Positions 3,043 to 61,068 of a stretch of 64,000 bases of DNA are shown here, piece after piece (position 1 is the first letter of the stretch; each line of letters starts with the position of its first letter). The stretch lies in contig CAYOJH010000004.1 of assembly GCA_964404275.1 (NCBI GenBank), forward strand, positions 5,172-69,171, read 5' to 3'. The notes beneath the pieces were generated by a model that saw only the letters and a list, made by a program, of their open reading frames with translations, did not search any database and was not told the DNA's origin. The stretch comes from an uncultured Gammaproteobacteria bacterium. GTDB lineage: Bacteria > Patescibacteriota > Patescibacteriia > SG8-24 > DYFX01. The translations under genes were made by a program, and so were the position numbers.

Positions 3043-3835
3043 TCAACCTTGCTTGGAAGAAGCGTCGATCGATATTTCGACGCCTTGACCGGCGCCCGTT
3101 CCTTTCTCGGCTCCTTGAGCGGGCTTCTCTTCTTCCGATTTTTCCTCCGTCGTTTTCTCTTTCTTTTCTTTTTCTTCGACTCCGGCGCGCTCTTCTTCCA
3201 GCTTCTTATCGACGCGTTCTTCGGCCTCTTTCGTCAAACTCTTGTCGAATTCTTTCATGAGTTCCGGAAGCTGCTTCAGAATCGCCGGCAAGGCCTTTAT
3301 GCCTTCTTTGAAGGCTGCGGCCAAGCCCTTCGCGGTTTCAGGGCTGAGACCGGAGCCTCCGCCTTCCAATGAGCGGCCGTCGCCGCGCTTTCCGCCTTTC
3401 AACATGCTTGCGAAATCTTTCGAATCCATCGATTCGAATTCCTTGAAAATCTCGTCGATCTTTTCTTGAAGAATTTTTTCTTTCTCTTCTTCGATCAAGC
3501 GTTCTTTCTCCTGGTGGCTGACGAGTTCTTTCTTTTCTTTTTCCAATTCTTCTTGGCGTTCCTCGAGCGCCTCCAGATTTTCCTGGTCCGTTGAAAGGCT
3601 CGGCGGATTTTCCTTGAGCGGCGGCAAGCCCAGCGACTCCCGCGTCTTGTTCAATTCCTTCGAGGTTTCGTCGATGGACTCTCTCAAGTTTTTCGCCTGC
3701 TCCTGCCCGCTTTCAAGCTCGCTTTCCAACCGTTCTTGTTTCCCGCCCGACGATTCAGCCGCCTGCTCTGATCGATGCTCGCTTGGATTCGGCTGGGTTT
3801 CTTGCGCCTTGGGCGCGCCTTCGTATTTGGACATA
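3043..3835 (-). CDS. Glu/Lys-rich coiled-coil hypothetical protein (low complexity); listed ORF extends to 4887 but the upstream part overlaps the tRNA and + strand genes
   Basis: ORF from MSKYEGAPK...; highly charged E/K repeats, locally lower GC from gaa/aag codons. Confidence 0.45.
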
Positions 3836-12758: not shown

Positions 12759-14014
12759 CGGTCATCGCCAGCGCGGCGCTCCTGCCATTCGAACGCCTCG
12801 GCGCCTTCACGCTCGCCGGCGTCAACATCCGGCCGAGCCAGATCGCGCTCGCGATCGCTTGGCTGCTTTGGATCAGGCTCTGGCTCCTCGGCCGGACGAA
12901 ACTCGCTTGGCGCCGTCCCTCCCTCCTCGCGCTGGCCGGTTTTTTCGCGGTCGCGGGCCTTTCGCTGTTGAACGCGGAAAATCTTCCGCGCTCCCTCGTC
13001 GTGCTCGGCTTCACGCTCTTCACCGCCTCGCTCGCGCTCTTGCTTCCCAACGTCATCAAAGACGAGCGCGCCTTCAAGCGCATCCGCGTCGCCATTGTGC
13101 TCTCCGCCGCGCTCGTCTCCTTGCTCGGCCTCTGGCAATTCGTGGCCGACATGCTCGGCGCGCCGCTTTGGATGACCGGATTGCGCGAGACCTATTCGCG
13201 CGCGATCCTCGGCTTCACGCGCGTGCAAGGCGCCTCGGCCGAGCCGCTCTATTTCGCCGACTACCTGCTGCTGCCCATCTCCTTGGTCGTCACCTGGTTG
13301 TTGCGCCATGACGCAAAAACTGACGGCCGTCGGTTTTTGCGCCCCGTGCAAATCCTGCTCGTCGCCATGTTGATTGACGTTTTCCTCACCGCTTCGCGCG
13401 GCGGCTGGCTCGGCCTCGGCGTGACACTCGTCGTGCTGTTGTGGTGCGAACGGAAGCGCTTGAAGGATTGGCGGCCGATCGCGCGGGCGGGCGGAATCGC
13501 CGTCGCGGCGCTCTCGCTTGGCGTGCTTCTGCTCGGAAGTTTCTTTTCTCCGACGCGCGAAACGGTGACGGATATTTTCTTCACCCACGTCACCAACATC
13601 ACGGGCGGCGCGGCGTATGACGACCGCGCGCAAACGATCTCCGCCGCGCTCGACGCCTGGCGCGCGCATCCTTGGATCGGCGTCGGCTTCGGCGGCTACG
13701 GCCCGTTCGTCTCGACCTTCGCCTTCGCCAAACCGGATGCAGGCTGGCCGATCGTGAATAATGAAACGTTGGAACTGCTCGCCGAAACGGGAGTATTTGG
13801 ACTTGTTGCCTTTCTGATCTTCCTCGTCACGCTTATGCATGAAACCAGCGGGCGGCGCAGGCGATATCCGCAGGAGGCAACACGCATCGCTTGCCTCGCG
13901 GCGCTGGCAGGCATGTTGGCGCAGTACCAGACCTTCTCAACCTTGTATATCATGCATGTGTGGTTTACGATCGGCCTGCTTTTAGCCGCGTCTGAGGCTG
14001 GAAAACCGGCTTGA
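12737..14014 (+). CDS. O-antigen ligase / Wzy_C-family membrane protein; carries an in-frame copy of the 36-bp palindromic repeat
   Basis: multi-TM, periplasmic loop with RGGWLGLG; repeat encodes HDAKTDGRRFLRP. Confidence 0.6.
   Translation: MDNALVVAVIASAALLPFERLGAFTLAGVNIRPSQIALAIAWLLWIRLWLLGRTKLAWRRPSLLALAGFFAVAGLSLLNAENLPRSLVVLGFTLFTASLALLLPNVIKDERAFKRIRVAIVLSAALVSLLGLWQFVADMLGAPLWMTGLRETYSRAILGFTRVQGASAEPLYFADYLLLPISLVVTWLLRHDAKTDGRRFLRPVQILLVAMLIDVFLTASRGGWLGLGVTLVVLLWCERKRLKDWRPIARAGGIAVAALSLGVLLLGSFFSPTRETVTDIFFTHVTNITGGAAYDDRAQTISAALDAWRAHPWIGVGFGGYGPFVSTFAFAKPDAGWPIVNNETLELLAETGVFGLVAFLIFLVTLMHETSGRRRRYPQEATRIACLAALAGMLAQYQTFSTLYIMHVWFTIGLLLAASEAGKPA
13309..13342. repeat. copy 2 of the palindromic repeat (slightly degenerate) located inside a CDS, in frame
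   Basis: TGACGCAAAAACTGACGGCCGTCGGTTTTTGCGC. Confidence 0.75.
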
Positions 14015-54962: not shown

Positions 54963-55844
54963 GTGAAACAGCACTGGATGAACGGGTTCACGCTCTGCGT
55001 ATTCGGGTGCGTCTTCCTGACGTTCCTGCTCGATGGTCCTTTTACCCAAAGGAAGGAGGCCGCCTCCGCTCAGGCCGCGACGATCAAGCCGCACTGGCCG
55101 ACTTCGCCGCGGGTCAACGCGGAAATTGAGATGCCGGTAGAGCAGCTTGCGCCTTCGCTTTCGGGTGAAGCCGCCGCTGTCTGCGCCAGCTATGATCCCG
55201 TCGCGCATCCGGAGCAGGTCCTCGACATCCTCGTCTACGCGAGCAAAGAAACCGGAACGCCGGTGGACGTGCTCTTCGCGATTTGGATGAACGAGACCGG
55301 CGTGGTCTACGGCTCCGGCGGATCCGATCGCTGTCCGGTCGCGGAGCAGCTGATGATCCGCTGCAAAGTGGGGCGCTCCTGCAGTCATGCGGAAGCGCTC
55401 GACCAGATGGCCGCGCGTTTCCACTGGAATACGCAAGGCATGCTCTGCTCGTGCGGAACTTCCACCATGGGCGAAAATACCGGAAACTTCGGCGGCTGCT
55501 GCGGACCGTTCCAATTCTCCGCCGGAGAAATCGCTCAGGACGCGCTCTCGCGCAATCTTGATCCGATGACGTTCTGCGGCGGAGCGATCGTGGCCGGCGC
55601 GGAGCTGAAGCGGTATCACGACCAACTCGGTTCGTGGGAAGCCGCCATCAAGCGCTATTACGGACTTGATCGCGACGGCCGCTACTATCAGCACGCCTAC
55701 CAGCATTGGCAGGAGATCAAGCCGTACATCGACGCGCAGGATCCGGACAAGCTGCGGACGTTCCTCAAGAACACCGCCGCACCCCGGCTCGCCTGGTCGC
55801 GCCAGAATCGGCAGCAGACGTCGCCGCTGCTCTCCAGCAACTAG
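54963..55844 (+). CDS. membrane-anchored Cys-rich extracytoplasmic protein (possible lysozyme/transglycosylase-like)
   Basis: N-terminal TM; 8+ Cys; motif GGCCGPFQF. Confidence 0.4.
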   Translation: MKQHWMNGFTLCVFGCVFLTFLLDGPFTQRKEAASAQAATIKPHWPTSPRVNAEIEMPVEQLAPSLSGEAAAVCASYDPVAHPEQVLDILVYASKETGTPVDVLFAIWMNETGVVYGSGGSDRCPVAEQLMIRCKVGRSCSHAEALDQMAARFHWNTQGMLCSCGTSTMGENTGNFGGCCGPFQFSAGEIAQDALSRNLDPMTFCGGAIVAGAELKRYHDQLGSWEAAIKRYYGLDRDGRYYQHAYQHWQEIKPYIDAQDPDKLRTFLKNTAAPRLAWSRQNRQQTSPLLSSN

Positions 55845-55979
55845 TACCTTCTTAGCCTCTCTGAGAGAGGTCGACCTCGGTCGGCCTCTTTTTGTATTGT
55901 ACGACACTCGCGGCGTTTGCCGAATGCGGCGCGAATTGCTAGCGTCAAGACAGGACGTTCCACGGACAAGGAGGTACGC

Positions 55980-56750
55980 ATGTCCGAACCGAAGAACTCA
56001 GGATTGATGGTGCTGCTCGGCAGCTTCGGCGGAGCCGCGCTGGCCACCGCCATCTGTCTCGCGTCCTTTCTGATCGCCGGACGCGCGAACCAGACGGTCA
56101 TCGTCAAGAAAGCGGACGAGGCTGTGACCGAGCGCGCCCGCATCTCGCCGGATGATCAAGTGATCACGGCGCACCACGAGGCCGCGCACGCCGTCGTCAG
56201 CATGGCGCTGCTTCCGGAACGCGGAATCGCCAAGCTCGAGGTCTTCTCCAAAGTCAGCCAGGGCAAGTACCTGGGCCTGACGACCTGGAGCGATGACAAG
56301 TCCCGCGGCGACGAAGCGTACCGGCATCGCGCCAACGCGCTCGTCTCCTTGGCCGGCGGCGCCGCCGAAGACGCGCTCTTCAAGAAAACGCCGTCCGACA
56401 GCGATCCGGATTCCGACGCTTCGGCTTTCGAATCGATCGCCTACTGCGAAGTCGCGCATTGCGACTGCCCGCCGGAAAGCAAGGTCGGCGACGACTGTCT
56501 GCTGAACGGCCTGCTCAAGCCGGAGCGCGCGGAGTTCTACGCGCAGGCGAAAACCTGCGTCGAAGCGAATCGCGCCGCGATCATCGAGCTGGCCAAGGCC
56601 GTCATCCTGAAAAGGGAGGACGAAACGCAGGCCGTGCGAACGCTGTCGAGCGGCGAGCTCAAGACGTTCTTCGCCGCGCATCCGCTCGACGTCGAGGCCT
56701 GCACCGGCATCGTTTCCACGCCCGCCCCGCCCGAAGCCCTGCAACCTTGA
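55980..56750 (+). CDS. membrane-anchored M41 (FtsH-like) zinc-metallopeptidase domain protein lacking AAA ATPase module
   Basis: HEXXH in ITAHHEAAHAVVS as in FtsH protease domain; N-terminal TM. Confidence 0.5.
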   Translation: MSEPKNSGLMVLLGSFGGAALATAICLASFLIAGRANQTVIVKKADEAVTERARISPDDQVITAHHEAAHAVVSMALLPERGIAKLEVFSKVSQGKYLGLTTWSDDKSRGDEAYRHRANALVSLAGGAAEDALFKKTPSDSDPDSDASAFESIAYCEVAHCDCPPESKVGDDCLLNGLLKPERAEFYAQAKTCVEANRAAIIELAKAVILKREDETQAVRTLSSGELKTFFAAHPLDVEACTGIVSTPAPPEALQP

Positions 56751-56790
56751 CAGGGCGCTTTTTTTATTGTGAAATCCGCCCGGAGGAATC

Positions 56791-57513
56791 ATGGACATTT
56801 CAGCGAAGGATCGGATCATCGTGGCGCTCGACATGGCGTACGAAAGCGTGATCATGTCGGCAATCCATCACCTGCGCGAACACGTCGGCATGTTCAAGTT
56901 CGGCTTCGAATCGATCCACGCCTTCGGGACTCCGAGGGTCAAGCAGATGATCGAAGAGACTGGCGGCAGCGACTTCATCGACTGCAAGCTTCACGACATT
57001 CCCGAAACCGTCAGGAAGTCGGCCTTGCAGATCGTCGGCCCGCACGTGAAGTTCTTCAATGTCCACGCGACCGCCGGGGCCGAAGCCATTCGCGCCGCCG
57101 CCGAGGCCAAAGGGCCTTCCAAGCTCTTGGCCGTGACGCTGTTGACATCGCTGTCGCCCAAGGATGTCGATGAGATTTACAACGCCGACCACGTCGAGCG
57201 GAAGGTCTTGAGCCTGGCGGCGCTGGCAATGAGGAATGGCGCCGATGGCGTCATCTGTTCGCCCAAGGAGATCCCGACGCTCCGCGCGCATCCGGCCACC
57301 AAGGATGCGATCCTGGTCACGCCCGGCGTGCGTCCGGCCGGCGCCGATCACAACGATCAGAAGCGCGTCATGACCCCCGGCGAAGCGATCCTGGCCGGCG
57401 CCGATTACCTCGTGATCGGCCGACCGATCCTGGGCGAGCTCGATTCGGTCGGGGCCGCGAAGCGCATCGCCGAGGAGATCGAGATCGCGCTCGCCAGTCG
57501 AGGCGCCCCGTGA
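56791..57513 (+). CDS. pyrF: orotidine 5'-phosphate decarboxylase
   Basis: IIVALD and K-x-H-D-I-P (CKLHDIPETV) motifs. Confidence 0.85.
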   Translation: MDISAKDRIIVALDMAYESVIMSAIHHLREHVGMFKFGFESIHAFGTPRVKQMIEETGGSDFIDCKLHDIPETVRKSALQIVGPHVKFFNVHATAGAEAIRAAAEAKGPSKLLAVTLLTSLSPKDVDEIYNADHVERKVLSLAALAMRNGADGVICSPKEIPTLRAHPATKDAILVTPGVRPAGADHNDQKRVMTPGEAILAGADYLVIGRPILGELDSVGAAKRIAEEIEIALASRGAP

Positions 57514-58166
57514 AGCGCCTCTCGGAAACCGACGTCATCGCGCTCTTCGAGCGCTTCGGCGCCTATCGCAAAGACGACCACTTCGTCTACGCCAGCGGCA
57601 AGCACGGCCACGAGTACCTCGATAAGAAGGCGCTGCTGGCCGATCCCGCCGCTTCCGCCGCCCTTTCCCATGAGATGTACTGGCGCTGGATCGAGACATC
57701 CGACGACCCGATACCCGACGTGGTCGCCGGGCCGGAAGTCAGCGGCGCGGACCTGGCCAAGCTCGTGATGGCGGACTATAACCGCCTGCTGGCGCTGACC
57801 GGAGCCGAACCGATCACCTCGATCTCGATCGATAAAGACGGCGCGGGCGGCTTCCGGCTGACGGAGGAAGCTGCCAACACCGTTCGAGGGCGGACCGTCC
57901 TCTTGACGGAGGATATTCTGAACACCGCTGGCAGCCTCGTCTCGGCGGCTCAAGCGGTGAAGAACGCCCGACCTCTCGCCATCGTCGGCGCAACCGTGAT
58001 CTGGAATCGCGGCGGGATCACCTCTCTCCCCTGCCCATTCATCTCGCTGGTAACCCGCCAGCTCGAAGCCTACGCCGCGACCGACTGCCCGTTCTGCAAG
58101 CAGGGCCGGCCGATCAATACGAAGCTCGGCCACGGCGCCGAGTATCTCCGCAGCCTCCGCCCTTGA
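57510..58166 (+). CDS. pyrE: orotate phosphoribosyltransferase
   Basis: PRPP-binding motif VLLTEDILNTAGS. Confidence 0.8.
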   Translation: MKRLSETDVIALFERFGAYRKDDHFVYASGKHGHEYLDKKALLADPAASAALSHEMYWRWIETSDDPIPDVVAGPEVSGADLAKLVMADYNRLLALTGAEPITSISIDKDGAGGFRLTEEAANTVRGRTVLLTEDILNTAGSLVSAAQAVKNARPLAIVGATVIWNRGGITSLPCPFISLVTRQLEAYAATDCPFCKQGRPINTKLGHGAEYLRSLRP

Positions 58167-58215
58167 TCTAAGGGCGGTTTTTTGTTTAGCTAGGCGGGTG
58201 CGAAAGGAGTTCCGC

Positions 58216-58842
58216 ATGCGCAGCGCCTTCATCATCGTCGGCAGCGAGCTCGGATTCTGGGAACAGGCTTGCGCGCTCGAAACCTACCTCCGCGCGAATG
58301 CCGGGATCCGATACGTTAAAATCTGCGAGGCCTGGAATCGGAAGCCGTTCGATCTCAAATACGCGTTCGACAACCATGCCATCCGCGCCGGACGCCAGCC
58401 GTTTCTCTTGGCCTACATCGGCCACGGCTACAAGGACAAGAAGACCGGCGAAACCGGCTGGTCGTACGGCAAGGAGAACGCCCATCGGGAACTTCGGCTC
58501 CCGTACGAGACGCTCCTGACCTGGCTGATCGAATCGCGCGACGGCCCGACGCTGTTCCTGAACGATTGCTGCTACGCGGCCTCGTTCCTGACGCCGGCGG
58601 TGCGCGAAAATCCGAGGCTCAAGATCAGCATGATCGCCGCCTCGCACGCGCAAGGCTTCTGCTACGGGTATCTCATGAATTCCGTCATGAATGCCTGGAT
58701 GGGCCGCGAGGTCTACGTGCCGAAGATCCATCTCCGCGATCCGACGATCAAACGCCATCACCGCGTGCTCGAAGAACGCTTCGGCCCCGCGCTCGACCAT
58801 CACTTCTTCCCGAAGCCCCCAGCCGCCAACCAGGCTGCCTAG
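58216..58842 (+). CDS. caspase-like (peptidase C14/CHAT-like) minimal protein with His/Cys dyad
   Basis: FIIVGS strand, AYIGHGY (His), ~45 aa later LFLNDCCYAASF (Cys). Confidence 0.4.
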   Translation: MRSAFIIVGSELGFWEQACALETYLRANAGIRYVKICEAWNRKPFDLKYAFDNHAIRAGRQPFLLAYIGHGYKDKKTGETGWSYGKENAHRELRLPYETLLTWLIESRDGPTLFLNDCCYAASFLTPAVRENPRLKISMIAASHAQGFCYGYLMNSVMNAWMGREVYVPKIHLRDPTIKRHHRVLEERFGPALDHHFFPKPPAANQAA

Positions 58843-58853
58843 GGGTTTTTTCT

Positions 58854-59912
58854 TTACAGCTGATGGTGTTTCGCTCGTTCAACCATGAACTTCACCGCGT
58901 CATTGGCATTGACGTATTCGATGAGTAGGTCCGGGTGGCGTTTCTGAAATACCCGGAACACCTCGTCAGCAAATGCCTGACCGACAGAGGGTACGCGCTC
59001 GAAGTCTAGGACGATCTGCTTGAATTTATCGAGTCCCGTAAGGAGGCGTCGGGCTTGCGAACGAGAAATTTGTGCTGTGCCATAACGGTATAATTTCACG
59101 TGCACCACTGTTCTATCGAAGGCCGGCTCTTCAACATCGATGGAAAAAGGCCGGAATACGTCACGATCAAGGTGCCTATCGGAGTTGAGGGCGATCTCAA
59201 AGATAACCTTGGTGCCGGTATGCGCGGAGATCTCTTCTAGGAATGTATCGGGAATCCGATTATCCACGGTGAGCATGAGCGTTCCGCTTTCGAGCATGAA
59301 GAGATCGCCGGATTTCGAGGTGAAGAAGATGCCCTCACCACTATGTCGGTCGGGAACCGTCGTCGTTTTCCCTTTCAACACGTCAAGAGCAGCTTCATAT
59401 TGGCTCTCCAAGCGTCTTTTCCACATCACGTTTTCAAAAGCACCGATCCCCCTGTCTTCAACCTCGAACCTCAATTTGCCGTCTCCAATTTCTACCGTGG
59501 TCCTGATAGTGTCTGATTGCGAATGATCTATTGCATTATTTACCATTTCCGAAAATGCATAATCAAAAATACTGCGTACGTTTTCATGCAGTACGCCGAG
59601 TTTCGGTAAATCTCTGACCACCTCATCGTAAACGTCTGCTTCGCTCAAGTCCGTATTACGAAACGTTTTTTCCCATTTCGAAGCGGTGTGTAAAATTGCC
59701 GACGCATTTTTCTCTGTCGCGGCAACATAGTAGGCTCCGCGCGTTATACCAATCTTCAGAATCCTCTTTTGTCCCAATAGCTGGCCAATAATATGCCTGG
59801 CCAGCTTGGCATGGCCTGGAAAAAAAACGATAACTTCGCGTGCTTTGAACTCGCGGCGCTCATCGAGTAATTCTTCGATTTTCTGCCTAATTTTCGTTGA
59901 GATATCAGACAT
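58854..59912 (-). CDS. wHTH + GHKL (HATPase_c-like) + C-terminal STAS-like (DUF4325-type) protein; low-GC
   Basis: N box MVNNAIDHS, G1 VEDRGIGA, G2 GEGIFFT; C-term FERVPSVGQAFADEVFRVF; GC visibly lower than flanks. Confidence 0.5.
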   Translation of the reverse strand: MSDISTKIRQKIEELLDERREFKAREVIVFFPGHAKLARHIIGQLLGQKRILKIGITRGAYYVAATEKNASAILHTASKWEKTFRNTDLSEADVYDEVVRDLPKLGVLHENVRSIFDYAFSEMVNNAIDHSQSDTIRTTVEIGDGKLRFEVEDRGIGAFENVMWKRRLESQYEAALDVLKGKTTTVPDRHSGEGIFFTSKSGDLFMLESGTLMLTVDNRIPDTFLEEISAHTGTKVIFEIALNSDRHLDRDVFRPFSIDVEEPAFDRTVVHVKLYRYGTAQISRSQARRLLTGLDKFKQIVLDFERVPSVGQAFADEVFRVFQKRHPDLLIEYVNANDAVKFMVERAKHHQL

Positions 59913-60113
59913 GGACGTGGTATCTACTAATAATCTACCAATATATACTAATCTTGTCAAGACCTATTTACTAATATATATCAATTATCGGGTTAAGAAT
60001 ATTGACAGGTGGGGCGCCACTTGATATCTTTTGCCTGTATTTAACTCCGGCCGCGACGCTTGGTTTCAGCCTCGAGCGGGCTCCTACTCGGCACGACGGC
60101 ATATAAAAGACGT

Positions 60114-60374
60114 ATGCTCGACAAGAAAGCGAAAGAAAAAATCATCGAGAAGTACAAGACGCACGATCAGGATACGGGTTCCGCGCAGGTCCAGATCGCC
60201 ATCCTTACGGCGGAGATCAAGGACCTGACCGACCACCTGAAGATGCATAAGAAGGACTTCTCGTCCCGCCGCGGTTTGCTCCGCAAGGTCAACGAGCGCC
60301 GCAAGTTGCTCCGCTACCTCCAGCGCGAAATGCCGAAGGAGTTCGCGAAGCTGACCGAAAAGCTCAAGATGTAA
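60114..60374 (+). CDS. rpsO: 30S ribosomal protein S15
   Basis: canonical S15 (GSAQVQIAILTAEIKDLTDHLKMHKKD...). Confidence 0.9.
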   Translation: MLDKKAKEKIIEKYKTHDQDTGSAQVQIAILTAEIKDLTDHLKMHKKDFSSRRGLLRKVNERRKLLRYLQREMPKEFAKLTEKLKM

Positions 60375-60377
60375 TTT

Positions 60378-60430
60378 GATAAGCGCGTCGCGTACACGGC
60401 CTTGCGGCTCCACGCGACGCGCTTCCGATT
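60378..60430 (+). terminator. long hairpin (AGCGCGTCGCGT...ACGCGACGCGCT) + T-run after rpsO
   Basis: 12-bp perfect stem. Confidence 0.55.
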
Positions 60431-60462
60431 TTTGACCGGATTTTCAACTTCATTTCATTTGT

Positions 60463-61068
60463 ATGGCCGTGATCAAGCAGAAGAGCCAGCGCGTCGGCGT
60501 TTTCATCGACGTACAGAACATGTATTACTCGGCGAAGAACCTGTATAACTGCCGCGTCAACTTCGGCAACATCGTCGAAGACGCCGTGGCTGATCGCCAG
60601 CTCGTGCGCGCGATCGCCTACGTCGTCCGCGCCGGCGTGCCCGAAGAGCAATCCTTCTTCGACGCCCTGACCAAGCTCGGCATTGAAACCAAGGAACGCG
60701 AAGTCCAGGTCTTCCTGGGCGGCGCCAAGAAAGCGGATTGGGACGTCGGCATGGTCGTCGACGCGATCCGCCTCTCCCCCAAGCTCGACGTGGTCGTCCT
60801 CGTCTCGGGCGACGGCGACTTCATCCCGCTGGTCGAATATCTCCAAAACATGGGCGTCCAGACGGAAGTCATGGCCTTCCGCGAGACGTCCTCCTCCAAA
60901 CTGGTCGAAGAAGTCGATGATTACACCGATTTGTCCCGCGACCAGAAGCGCTACCTGATCCCCACGCGCTTCACCGGCCGGACGAGCGGCGCCCGCGCGC
61001 CGAAGCCCGCTCCGACCGCCGACGACGTCGATCCCAACATCAGCCAGATGCTCAAAGGCGAGGAGTAA
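60463..61068 (+). CDS. NYN-domain (LabA/DUF88-like, PIN-like) protein
   Basis: VFIDVQNMYYS and VLVSGDGDF acidic motifs. Confidence 0.75.
   Translation: MAVIKQKSQRVGVFIDVQNMYYSAKNLYNCRVNFGNIVEDAVADRQLVRAIAYVVRAGVPEEQSFFDALTKLGIETKEREVQVFLGGAKKADWDVGMVVDAIRLSPKLDVVVLVSGDGDFIPLVEYLQNMGVQTEVMAFRETSSSKLVEEVDDYTDLSRDQKRYLIPTRFTGRTSGARAPKPAPTADDVDPNISQMLKGEE

Follow-up and report, generated by a model that had tools for sequence, protein, structure and literature searches.

Among caspase-fold peptidases, a D-x-C motif goes with the basic P1 preference of metacaspases, as known from the S1 pockets of TbMCA2 and Yca1. The 208-residue protein described here has its closest characterised counterparts in the metacaspases and bacterial orthocaspases (MEROPS C14B), with which it shares 10–17% identity (AtMC4, PDB 6w8r; AtMC9, PDB 8a53; Yca1, PDB 4f6p; Geobacter GSU0716, PDB 3bij). 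Unlike these enzymes, it measures ~200 residues, lacks a prodomain and the 280-loop, apparently has no p20/p10 linker, and carries family-specific, invariant residues of its own (W82, Y97 and W161) as well as a C-terminal motif. Its gene converges with one encoding a GHKL ATPase, and the two were originally predicted to form a sensor-ATPase plus caspase module inserted between core genes. Our analysis of the locus, within a 64-kb stretch of DNA from a very small, uncultured member of the Patescibacteria (the window), does not support such a module: the caspase-like gene is native and syntenic in 12 of 12 lineages, eight of which lack the GHKL gene. The two genes are probably functionally independent, one being a resident caspase-fold peptidase and the other a separately acquired accessory regulator cassette.

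Two convergent genes upstream of rpsO

Both open reading frames were found as originally described (Table 1). The ATG start of the caspase-like gene is preceded 7 nt upstream by the Shine-Dalgarno sequence AAAGGAG and agrees with the N-termini of homologues; on these grounds, a GTG at 58198 was rejected as the start. FIIVGS, AYIGHGY (containing His70) and LFLNDCCYAASF (containing Cys119, nt 58570–58572) are all present in the product. The predicted His/Cys dyad is retained, with its spacing corrected from about 45 to 49 residues. The protein has no signal peptide, membrane anchor or additional domains, including SAVED or TPR sensors, and is cytoplasmic and stand-alone. With a GC content of 0.617 and GC3 of 0.833, the gene matches its neighbours (GC3 of 0.73–0.86; window mean GC 0.613, sd 0.033 in 1059-nt windows) and its composition is thus native.

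Of the two flanking genes named in the original prediction, the identity of rpsO is clear. The presumed pyrE encodes a phosphoribosyltransferase (PRTase) that scores 85.8 bits against the TIGR01367 cut-off of 150 and adjoins a clear pyrF; we refer to it as pyrE-like. The loop of its intrinsic terminator contains a -35-like TTGAYN, followed 17 nt on by a -10-like hexamer, and the hairpin, T-run and TTGAC-N17-TAxxxT arrangement are kept across seven related loci. The terminator insulates the caspase-like gene, for which the overlapping -35/-10-like pair would serve as its own promoter; our promoter scans used an E. coli-type consensus that may not suit Patescibacteria. An Rfam scan of positions 57800–60500 returned nothing meaningful.

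Table 1. Features of the locus in window coordinates.
Feature	Position	Strand	Remarks
pyrE-like intrinsic terminator CCGCCCTTGATCTAAGGGCGG + T-run	58157..58187	+	terminator scan; pyrE-like stop codon in loop
Caspase-like ORF	58216..58842	+	208 aa; clan CD caspase-fold cysteine peptidase gene; stand-alone catalytic domain
Catalytic His70 codon, motif Y-I-G-H-G	58423..58425	+	invariant among close homologues; 170/171 representatives; aligns with YSGHG of GSU0716
Asp117-Cys118-Cys119 codons	58564..58572	+	metacaspase-like D-x-C, Cys119 as putative nucleophile; aligned to DSCHSG of GSU0716
Family-specific C-terminal motif R188-x-G190-x-x-L-D194-x-x-F-F-P	58777..58815	+	R188, G190 and D194 each in at least 93% of 171 representatives
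11-nt spacer GGGTTTTTTCT between convergent stop codons	58843..58853	.	comparison with L013, L001 and L007
T-run TTTTTTCTTT	58846-58855		follows caspase-like gene in empty-site relatives; left edge of cassette
wHTH + GHKL + STAS-like gene	58854..59912	-	352 aa; accessory, foreign composition
wHTH domain	59685-59912	-	aa 1-76
SpoIIAB/RsbW-type GHKL kinase/ATPase domain	59178-59591	-	aa ~108-245
STAS-like DUF4325 domain	58863-59111	-	aa ~268-350; E 2.6e-14
AT-rich upstream region of GHKL cassette	59913..59995	-	promoter-like element and repeat array
Promoter-like TTGACA-17-TAGATT	59960-59932	-	in GHKL upstream region
Four direct copies of 12-nt TATYTAMTARTA	59921, 59932, 59942, 59965		candidate operator array for the GHKL gene's own wHTH
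rpsO promoter-like TTGACA-17-TATCTT and conserved rpsO leader	60002..60113	+	right edge of insertion site, common to empty-site relatives

A compact peptidase family with the caspase fold

The predicted structure of the caspase-like protein is a single compact domain without a long linker that shows the caspase strand order and an alpha/beta/alpha sandwich; the loops at residues ~141–150 and ~171–180 were modeled with lower confidence. H70 and C119 are kept in 24 of 24 close homologues and occur together in 169 of 171 representatives of the wider family, in which C119 alone is found in 170 and D117 in 118 (69%). For the C-terminal motif, we noted no counterpart in known clan-CD families. Searches of the PDB with the single sequence or a close-family profile yielded noise only. 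The profile of the wider family matched GSU0716 (E 1.6e-4), Raptor, metacaspase-4 and GPI8, with the YxGHG and DxC motifs aligned. Pfam matches among family members are weak and fall on C25, Raptor_N, C14 and C13. The window protein itself weakly matches Raptor_N and the NCBIfam model caspase_w_EACC1 (20.2 bits, with a cut-off of 140), has no match to PF00656 (Peptidase_C14) at E ≤ 0.1, a model that gave sub-threshold matches in just 6 of 87 family members, and carries no CHAT (PF12770) signature. The conserved residues and the wider-profile matches bear out the caspase/metacaspase fold with a His/Cys dyad that had been predicted, and the protein has the caspase-haemoglobinase fold (clan CD), nearest to metacaspases and orthocaspases.

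The family comprises ~250 representatives (clusters at 50% identity) of 180–300 residues. In cluster look-ups, every named member is a "hypothetical protein"; the credible taxonomic labels are all Patescibacteria, while the majority of proteins in the wider family carry no label. Another round of homology searching with the wide profile yielded no further taxonomic names. Searches of the literature on orthocaspases in Patescibacteria and caspases in the Candidate Phyla Radiation (CPR) found no functional study of it. This is an unannotated and previously unnamed family of clan-CD peptidases. Based on the conserved motifs, His70 would act as the general base and Cys119 as the nucleophile of an enzyme that we predict to be an active endopeptidase on lineage-specific cytoplasmic substrates. 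Because of the D-x-C motif, its P1 preference is probably basic (Arg/Lys) as in metacaspases, an assignment that leans on this one motif, with D117 kept in 69% of the wider family.

A fusion of winged-helix, GHKL and STAS-like domains

The domain composition proposed for the neighbouring protein was confirmed; the protein matches DUF4325 and has a Bergerat fold with an N box (ExxxN), G1 (DxGxG) and G2 (GxG). Since homologues begin at the position of ATG 59912, an upstream TTG (59960) was rejected as the start. Pfam matches at the N-termini of homologues are to MarR, HTH_24 and Rrf2-type domains. The protein scores far under the cut-offs of the NCBIfam spIIAB and RsbW models. At the STAS phospho-serine position (S309), most but not all homologues have serine or threonine; S283, S285 and the motif S-R-S-Q-A-R-R are invariant. 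No sigma factor gene is adjacent. More than 6000 homologues occur across CPR phyla, in unrelated neighbourhoods without a caspase-like gene and with "DUF4325 / STAS-like domain-containing protein" as their sole annotation. We found no functional study of the DUF4325 / STAS-like plus HATPase family in the literature, and a tblastn search of phage and plasmid collections with the GHKL protein gave no match.

Upstream of this gene, all five matches to TATYTAMTARTA in the window (up to 2 mismatches) fall within the GHKL upstream region. In L010, L017 and L032 (L numbers denote the compared loci and lineages), clusters of this motif likewise precede the orthologous genes, and other CPR homologues have four copies of GTTTACAA(T) in its place. 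Repeat arrays precede the gene at four orthologous and three distant loci. Such AT-rich repeats could also be mere promoter-like hexamers. We hypothesise that the protein is a "partner-switching" regulator in one polypeptide, uniting a winged helix, a SpoIIAB/RsbW-like kinase and a STAS-like domain. In this model, the protein would bind or phosphorylate its own STAS domain in an ATP-dependent manner and thereby toggle DNA binding, and the 12-nt repeats over its own promoter are the likely target, which would make the gene autoregulatory.

The caspase-like gene is resident

Across the 12 related Patescibacteria lineages that we compared, the caspase-like gene always lies just upstream of rpsO-NYN-pnp, usually directly after the pyrE-like gene, and it holds this position even at 29% identity (L028). 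The pyrE-like gene is absent from L010/L019 and L009. Identity of the caspase-like protein between genomes is 25–62%, compared with 81–94% for the flanking xerC, rpsO, NYN and pnp products. Because the pyrE-, pyrF-, M41- and hyp293-like neighbours are as divergent as the caspase-like gene, the whole xerC-rpsO interval, and not this gene in particular, evolves fast. L015 and L017 carry tandem divergent caspase paralogues. More distant family members lie among common housekeeping genes (L28, Pth, S1, radical SAM). A convergent gene of ~347 codons beside one of them (L030), considered as a second caspase/GHKL pair, encodes ribosomal protein S1. Neither atypical composition nor absence from relatives, the marks of a horizontal islet, was found for the caspase-like gene, which is resident and vertically inherited.

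The GHKL gene is an accessory cassette

The GHKL gene is the lowest-GC kilobase of the window, with a GC content of 0.483 and GC3 of 0.535 against surroundings of 0.61 and ~0.83, and GC falls to 0.39 in the intergenic region upstream of it. GC3 of this gene is also below that of the host in L010, L017 and L022. Among the 12 lineages, the slot between the caspase-like gene and rpsO contains the GHKL gene in four, is empty in four and holds other cargo in four (DUF3800, an MBL-fold hydrolase, a PaaX/Cas2-like gene or a second caspase paralogue). The GHKL gene is missing even from L012 and L013, whose caspase-like proteins are 59–61% identical to that of the window. Comparison with empty sites places the cassette edges at the T-run (58846–58855) and near 59995, with nothing but the GHKL gene and the region upstream of it in between. 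The cassette is thus a ~1.15-kb unit with a single gene, its own promoter-like element and a repeat array, and it sits exactly between the terminator T-run of the caspase gene and the rpsO promoter. The original prediction of AT-rich, foreign DNA here was sound: composition, absence from eight of the 12 lineages and defined edges all mark the GHKL gene as a horizontal islet. That both genes should be conserved core genes of native composition in all relatives had been named as one observation that would speak against the original prediction; it describes the caspase-like gene and not the GHKL gene.

Searches for target-site duplications and for inverted or direct repeats flanking the cassette gave chance-level matches only, and no integrase, transposase or tRNA was found at the slot. 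A xerC-like recombinase gene nearby belongs to the conserved core (81–89% identity). We propose that a lower-GC CPR donor passed the cassette to this high-GC lineage, a direction of transfer suggested by composition. The cassette has been retained in about one-third of relatives, the slot otherwise holding other cargo or nothing.

Alternative readings of the locus

The reading closest to the original prediction, in which a GHKL-STAS sensor/ATPase and a caspase-like effector make up an acquired two-gene island for defence or programmed cell death, located between pyrE and rpsO, is very improbable. The composition of the caspase-like gene is native, and eight of 12 lineages have the gene without its neighbour; the GHKL family outnumbers the caspase-like family more than 20-fold and is found without caspases; the genes are convergent with separate promoter-like elements; and the insert edges hold the GHKL gene alone. 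A SpoIIAB/RsbW kinase-type GHKL domain joined to a wHTH also indicates a regulator, not a STAND/AAA NTPase sensor. The proposed check against PADLOC-DB v2 returned no match at E ≤ 0.1 for either protein, nor did PADLOC match the pyrE-like protein or the caspase paralogues; among the slot cargo, it gave only a weak Cas2-like match. The GHKL gene does recur in the same convergent position in four lineages, where the caspase-like proteins are 36–38% identical to that of the window, and this recurrence may reflect a functional tie between the genes. All GHKL relatives of at least 63% identity on contigs of readable length lie in the caspase-like/rpsO slot. It is unlikely, though less so, that the protease is a conflict or host-interaction gene, the constant part of a variable locus with interchangeable accessory partners. 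Its divergence relative to the flanking core genes, strictly kept catalytic residues in an otherwise varying protein, the tandem paralogues and the turnover of the adjacent slot would fit such a role. Against it stand the four empty slots, the equal divergence of the pyrE-, pyrF-, M41- and hyp293-like neighbours, the housekeeping contexts of distant members and the lack of any known defence signature in PADLOC. The caspase-like gene does lie in a fast-evolving interval of variable gene content with defence-flavoured cargo (DUF3800, Cas2-like), which hints at a conflict role over housekeeping. We give very little credence to a housekeeping maturation or regulatory protease tied to the pyrimidine PRTase or to the rpsO-NYN-pnp RNA-turnover operon; the position held at 29% identity and the shared strand of all these genes favour it, but a conserved terminator parts the gene from pyrE, which is itself missing in L010/L019 and L009, cargo can part it from rpsO, more distant members have other neighbours, and its divergence far outpaces that of rpsO, NYN and pnp.

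A separate question is whether the GHKL-STAS gene is ancestral and was repeatedly lost, its low GC being intrinsic to the family or a selected bias. This history is possible but doubtful. The four slot copies form their own clade (62–77% identity; next best at most 53%) and have motifs and upstream regions that can be aligned with one another, their GC3 follows that of the host in part (0.48, 0.54 and 0.71), and an unrelated CPR copy is likewise AT-richer than its host (L022: GC3 of 0.23 against 0.41–0.51). Yet a GC3 deficit of 0.18–0.30 that persists despite 27–38% protein divergence fits poorly with long residence unless it is selected, and the distribution is patchy even in the closest relatives (L012 and L013). 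An ancestral origin would alter the history of the gene and not its independence from the caspase-like gene.

Significance and comparison with known systems

A resident peptidase beside an independent regulator cassette, the reading that we prefer, corrects a tempting annotation as a defence or programmed-cell-death module. The minimal (~200 aa) caspase-fold family, with an intact dyad and its own motifs, represents a compact branch of the metacaspase/orthocaspase radiation and offers a small and tractable system in which to study the catalytic core. A widespread CPR "DUF4325" protein emerges as a fusion of a wHTH, a SpoIIAB-like kinase and a STAS domain whose own promoter carries repeat arrays, which provides a testable hypothesis of a one-protein partner-switch regulator in regulator-poor organisms. 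A bolder and highly improbable idea casts the mini-caspase as the constant effector in a conflict locus specific to Patescibacteria, gated by whichever slot gene adjoins it; if true, it would reveal, in ultra-small episymbiotic bacteria, a modular system of immunity or host interaction that is built on a caspase and absent from current defence catalogues.

The caspase-like protein has no sequence-level membership in the legumain/GPI8 transamidase (C13), gingipain (C25), Raptor caspase-like domain or CHAT protease groups and, unlike these, stands alone, without a signal peptide, membrane anchor or sensor domains (SAVED, TPR). The slot resembles defence islands and integration hot spots in its fixed position between the caspase-like gene and rpsO, its alternative cargo and its foreign composition; it differs from them in lacking an integrase, a transposase, a tRNA and direct repeats at its flanks and in cargo limited to one or two genes. 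The SpoIIAB/RsbW anti-sigma-factor serine kinases act with SpoIIAA/RsbV STAS partners. In contrast to those modules, the GHKL protein has no evident sigma factor partner, its canonical phospho-serine position is not invariant, and its kinase and STAS-like domains are fused in one chain behind a winged helix.

Organisation of the locus

The two convergent ORFs and the quoted peptide motifs of the original prediction are all present in the window, a high-GC stretch (mean 0.613). Two distances required correction, as the convergent stops lie 11 nt apart, not 12, and 49 residues, not ~45, separate the His and Cys of the caspase-like product. In public data, the sources of identical proteins and of syntenic relatives are Patescibacteria/Minisyncoccota metagenome-assembled genomes, two of which are labelled "uncultured Gammaproteobacteria", probably a mislabel. 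All comparison loci (prefixed L) were metagenome-derived.

Features of the window (from xerC to pnp in gene order) and of comparison loci, with amino acid identity of relatives to the window
Feature	Locus	Position (strand)	Identity	Remarks
xerC-like recombinase	window	(-)	81–89%	
Secreted protein hyp293	window		35–48%	293 aa, Cys-rich
M41-like membrane protein	window		27–59%	FtsH-protease-domain-only, with HEAAH
pyrF	window		43–47%	
pyrE-like PRTase	window		30–51%	
Hypervariable interval	window	54963–58166		
pyrE-like terminator	window	58157–58187		9-bp GC-rich hairpin then T7; pyrE-like stop codon in loop
Terminator/putative promoter overlap	window	58157–58215		
Caspase-like ORF	window	58216–58842 (+)	25–62%	208 aa
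T-run	window	58846–58855		
GHKL-STAS ORF	window	58854–59912 (-)		352 aa
TG-extended promoter-like element	window	59960–59932 (-)		
rpsO	window		88–94%	
NYN-domain gene	window	60463–61068	81–93%	
pnp	window		81–88%	
Low-GC stretch	window	~3,050–3,150		GC 0.53
Low-GC stretch	window	~13,650–14,000		GC 0.51
rpsO 5' leader	window	60030–60113		
rpsO 5' leader	L010	4560–4690		
rpsO 5' leader	L017	5750–5880		reverse strand
DUF3800 protein	L004	8650–9459		
PaaX/Cas2-like wHTH protein	L009	6668–7165		165 aa
MBL-fold hydrolase	L009	7240–8259		
MBL-fold hydrolase	L012	6352–7374		
MBL-fold hydrolase	L015	3907–4923		
Second caspase paralogue	L015	3094–3849		~250 aa
Second caspase paralogue	L017	7073–7816		~250 aa
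Upstream repeat array	L022	4840–5000		
Upstream repeat array	L026	4840–5000		
Upstream repeat array	L034	930–1026		

The caspase-like protein belongs to a divergent clan-CD family

As a single sequence, the 208-aa protein gave weak matches over its His-Cys region to the caspase-like Raptor_N in Pfam (E 0.017) and to caspase_w_EACC1 in NCBIfam (E 3e-4), and a viral structure library returned giant-virus caspases and metacaspases. A word-indexed search identified 24 homologues (36–100% identity), all without annotation and the few named ones from the Patescibacteria group; G69-H70-G71 and C119 never vary among them. When 1.84 billion representatives were searched exhaustively with a profile, the family grew to 254 proteins at E ≤ 1e-3 (127 at E ≤ 1e-10), with members of 180–300 aa and sparse taxonomic labels. 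In an alignment of 171 sequences, comprising 147 newly listed profile matches and the 24 close homologues, His70 and Cys119 are present in all save two fragments, and G9, W82, Y97, N116, W161, R188, G190 and D194 are each 88–95% conserved. A profile built from 87 diverse members matched solved clan-CD proteins, namely GSU0716 (E 1.6e-4), Raptor (E 7e-4), metacaspase-4 (E 1.2e-3) and GPI8 (E 8e-3), aligning the family YxGHG with YSGHG and N-D-C-C with D-S-C-H. Because the dyad is conserved across the family and the profile reaches solved clan-CD proteins, the proposed caspase fold and His/Cys dyad are established. Membership of Pfam Peptidase_C14 was not established by sequence; individual members gave weak Pfam matches to C25, Raptor_N, C14 and C13, none at gathering level. 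These alignments are best described as defining a new divergent clan-CD family, nearest to the metacaspase/orthocaspase branch.

The protein consists of the catalytic domain alone. Because beta-strand 1 of the fold occupies its N-terminus, no signal peptide is present. Given the strictly conserved dyad and confident fold, the protein is predicted to be catalytically active, as a Cys peptidase or transpeptidase. Metacaspases share the D117-x-C119 arrangement, and in the TbMCA2 and Yca1 structures this Asp forms part of an acidic S1 pocket. By this analogy a P1 preference for Arg/Lys would be favoured, if weakly, since D117 is conserved in only 69% of the family. The tandem paralogues in L015 and L017 (25–32% identity) keep the GHG, NDC/NDT-C and C-terminal RWGxxLDxxFFP motifs.

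Promoters and terminators were called as consensus matches. The loop of the pyrE-like terminator carries a -35-like TTGAC(A/G/T), with a -10-like TAxxxT-like hexamer 17 nt on, and the hairpin, T-run and TTGAC/-10-like pair are kept in seven relatives (including L001, L004, L007, L012, L013 and L015). We infer that, through this overlapping terminator and putative promoter, the caspase-like gene is transcribed as a separate unit; its ATG follows a strong SD.

The GHKL-STAS gene is optional cargo

We compared the region across 12 distinguishable related lineages, the window's own included. The flanking core genes are strongly conserved, whereas all genes between xerC and rpsO are far more divergent, a surprising observation for the housekeeping pyrE and pyrF. 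The hypervariable interval also swaps gene content, with a secreted Exo_endo_phos protein and pyrF in place of the M41-like gene in some relatives. The conservation of the NYN-domain gene (LabA-like RNase), between rpsO and pnp, matches that of these two neighbours, suggesting that it is part of core RNA turnover in this lineage.

Optional cargo aside, the caspase-like gene is the last resident gene ahead of rpsO in every lineage. The slot between the two is empty in four lineages (L001, L007/L014, L013 and L028), holds a GHKL-STAS gene, always convergent, in four (the window, L010/L019–21, L017/18 and L032/33) and carries other cargo in four: a DUF3800 protein (L004), a PaaX/Cas2-like protein with an MBL-fold hydrolase (L009), the hydrolase by itself (L012), or the second caspase paralogue with the hydrolase (L015). 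In L017 the paralogue accompanies the GHKL-STAS gene. The hydrolase is a conserved 340-aa protein encoded on the opposite strand; the PaaX-like protein has a Cas2-like domain (PADLOC Cas2 E 9e-7), with no CRISPR context at its gene in L009. With the caspase-like gene in 12/12 lineages and the GHKL gene in 4/12, the central claim that the pair forms a caspase/ATPase defence or cell-death island is wrong. At the loci examined, GHKL-STAS genes of other CPR genomes adjoin efflux pumps and glycosyltransferases, IS elements or unrelated small genes, with no caspase-like gene nearby, and distant caspase-family members adjoin an L28, Pth, S1 or radical-SAM gene, with no GHKL gene beside them. Judged by gene context, neither family depends on the other.

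At empty sites the caspase stop is followed by GGC(T)TTTTTCTTT, a short spacer and the rpsO -35 TTGAC. The window has this T-run too, leading straight into the GHKL stop codon, and homology returns just ahead of the rpsO -35, near 59995–60002. These breakpoints delimit an inserted unit of ~1.15 kb by alignment, consisting of the GHKL ORF and ~85 nt of AT-rich upstream DNA; searches around it revealed neither flanking repeats nor mobility genes.

The GHKL gene has GC 0.483 and GC3 0.535, against GC3 of 0.73–0.86 in its neighbours, and contains the lowest-GC 1059-nt stretch of the 64 kb (0.462, ~4.5 sd under the mean). The AT-rich composition originally noted is therefore confirmed for this gene and its upstream region, but does not extend to the caspase-like gene (GC 0.617, GC3 0.833), which resembles its neighbours. 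Elsewhere in the window, 1-kb GC falls below 0.54 only at the two tabulated stretches, which may hold further foreign or special-composition genes.

The four slot-resident GHKL copies are mutual closest relatives (62–77% identity; next best match 53%, in another genomic context) and have upstream motifs in common, which favours either one acquisition by the lineage with later loss or recombinational spread among its members. Their GC3 (0.48, 0.54, 0.71) partly follows that of the host, staying 0.18–0.30 lower, and an unrelated CPR copy (L022) is likewise AT-richer than its host (GC3 0.23 versus 0.41–0.51). This deficit may reflect incomplete amelioration, repeated transfer or selection.

The GHKL-STAS protein and its upstream repeats

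The product is a wHTH-GHKL-STAS fusion, as originally predicted. It matches DUF4325 (E 2.6e-14) and, just above gathering, HATPase_c_2 and HATPase_c in Pfam, and its N (E122, N126, H130), G1 (D153-x-G-x-G157) and G2 (G192-x-G194) boxes are invariant in 43 homologues. Among candidate phospho-acceptors, S283 and S285 are also invariant, whereas most homologues have S/T at position 309. The family is large (>6000 matches scored among candidates); among the matches listed, homologues are 45–50% identical, and the named ones belong to Saccharimonadia, Paceibacterota, Gracilibacteria, Peregrinibacteria, Doudnabacteria and Margulisiibacteriota. In source annotations they appear only as "DUF4325/STAS-like domain-containing" or "anti-sigma regulatory factor", and we found no functional study of the family in the literature. 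With a wHTH joined to a SpoIIAB-like kinase and STAS-like domain, the protein may work as a partner switch within one polypeptide that would govern DNA binding.

Besides the promoter-like element, the GHKL upstream region carries four direct copies of TATYTAMTARTA. Allowing ≤2 mismatches, the window contains five matches, all within this 100-nt stretch; at ≤1 mismatch there are two, both exact, versus 0.02 expected by chance. Orthologous upstream regions of L010, L017 and L032 carry 5–6 copies, found nowhere else in those loci, and distant homologues in unrelated CPR have GTTTACAA(T) four times or the palindrome TCTACTAATTAGTAGA. Repeats clustered at a gene's own promoter fit a DNA-binding protein that regulates itself; for the GHKL protein this is a hypothesis at this stage, because the motifs also resemble promoter hexamers.

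Across species the adjacent rpsO 5' leader shows strong conservation, interrupted by hairpins inserted in particular lineages. Rfam gave no match to it, and it may serve in S15 autoregulation. Translation of rpsO probably starts at the ATG near 60114 rather than at the TTG (60060) listed by the ORF finder.

Implications

Overall, the folds and the foreign character of the GHKL gene stand, whereas the joint defence or cell-death island does not. The data leave room for a conflict-related role of the caspase-like protein itself: its gene diverges fast, is occasionally duplicated in tandem and sits in a variable interval, although rapid evolution is common to the entire interval, the slot stands empty in four lineages, and the protein matches no defence model. 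What emerges is a new, unannotated clan-CD family, whose labelled members are all Patescibacteria, together with a better-defined picture of a putative regulator that is widespread in CPR. We consider this useful and of moderate interest, and not a new kind of system.
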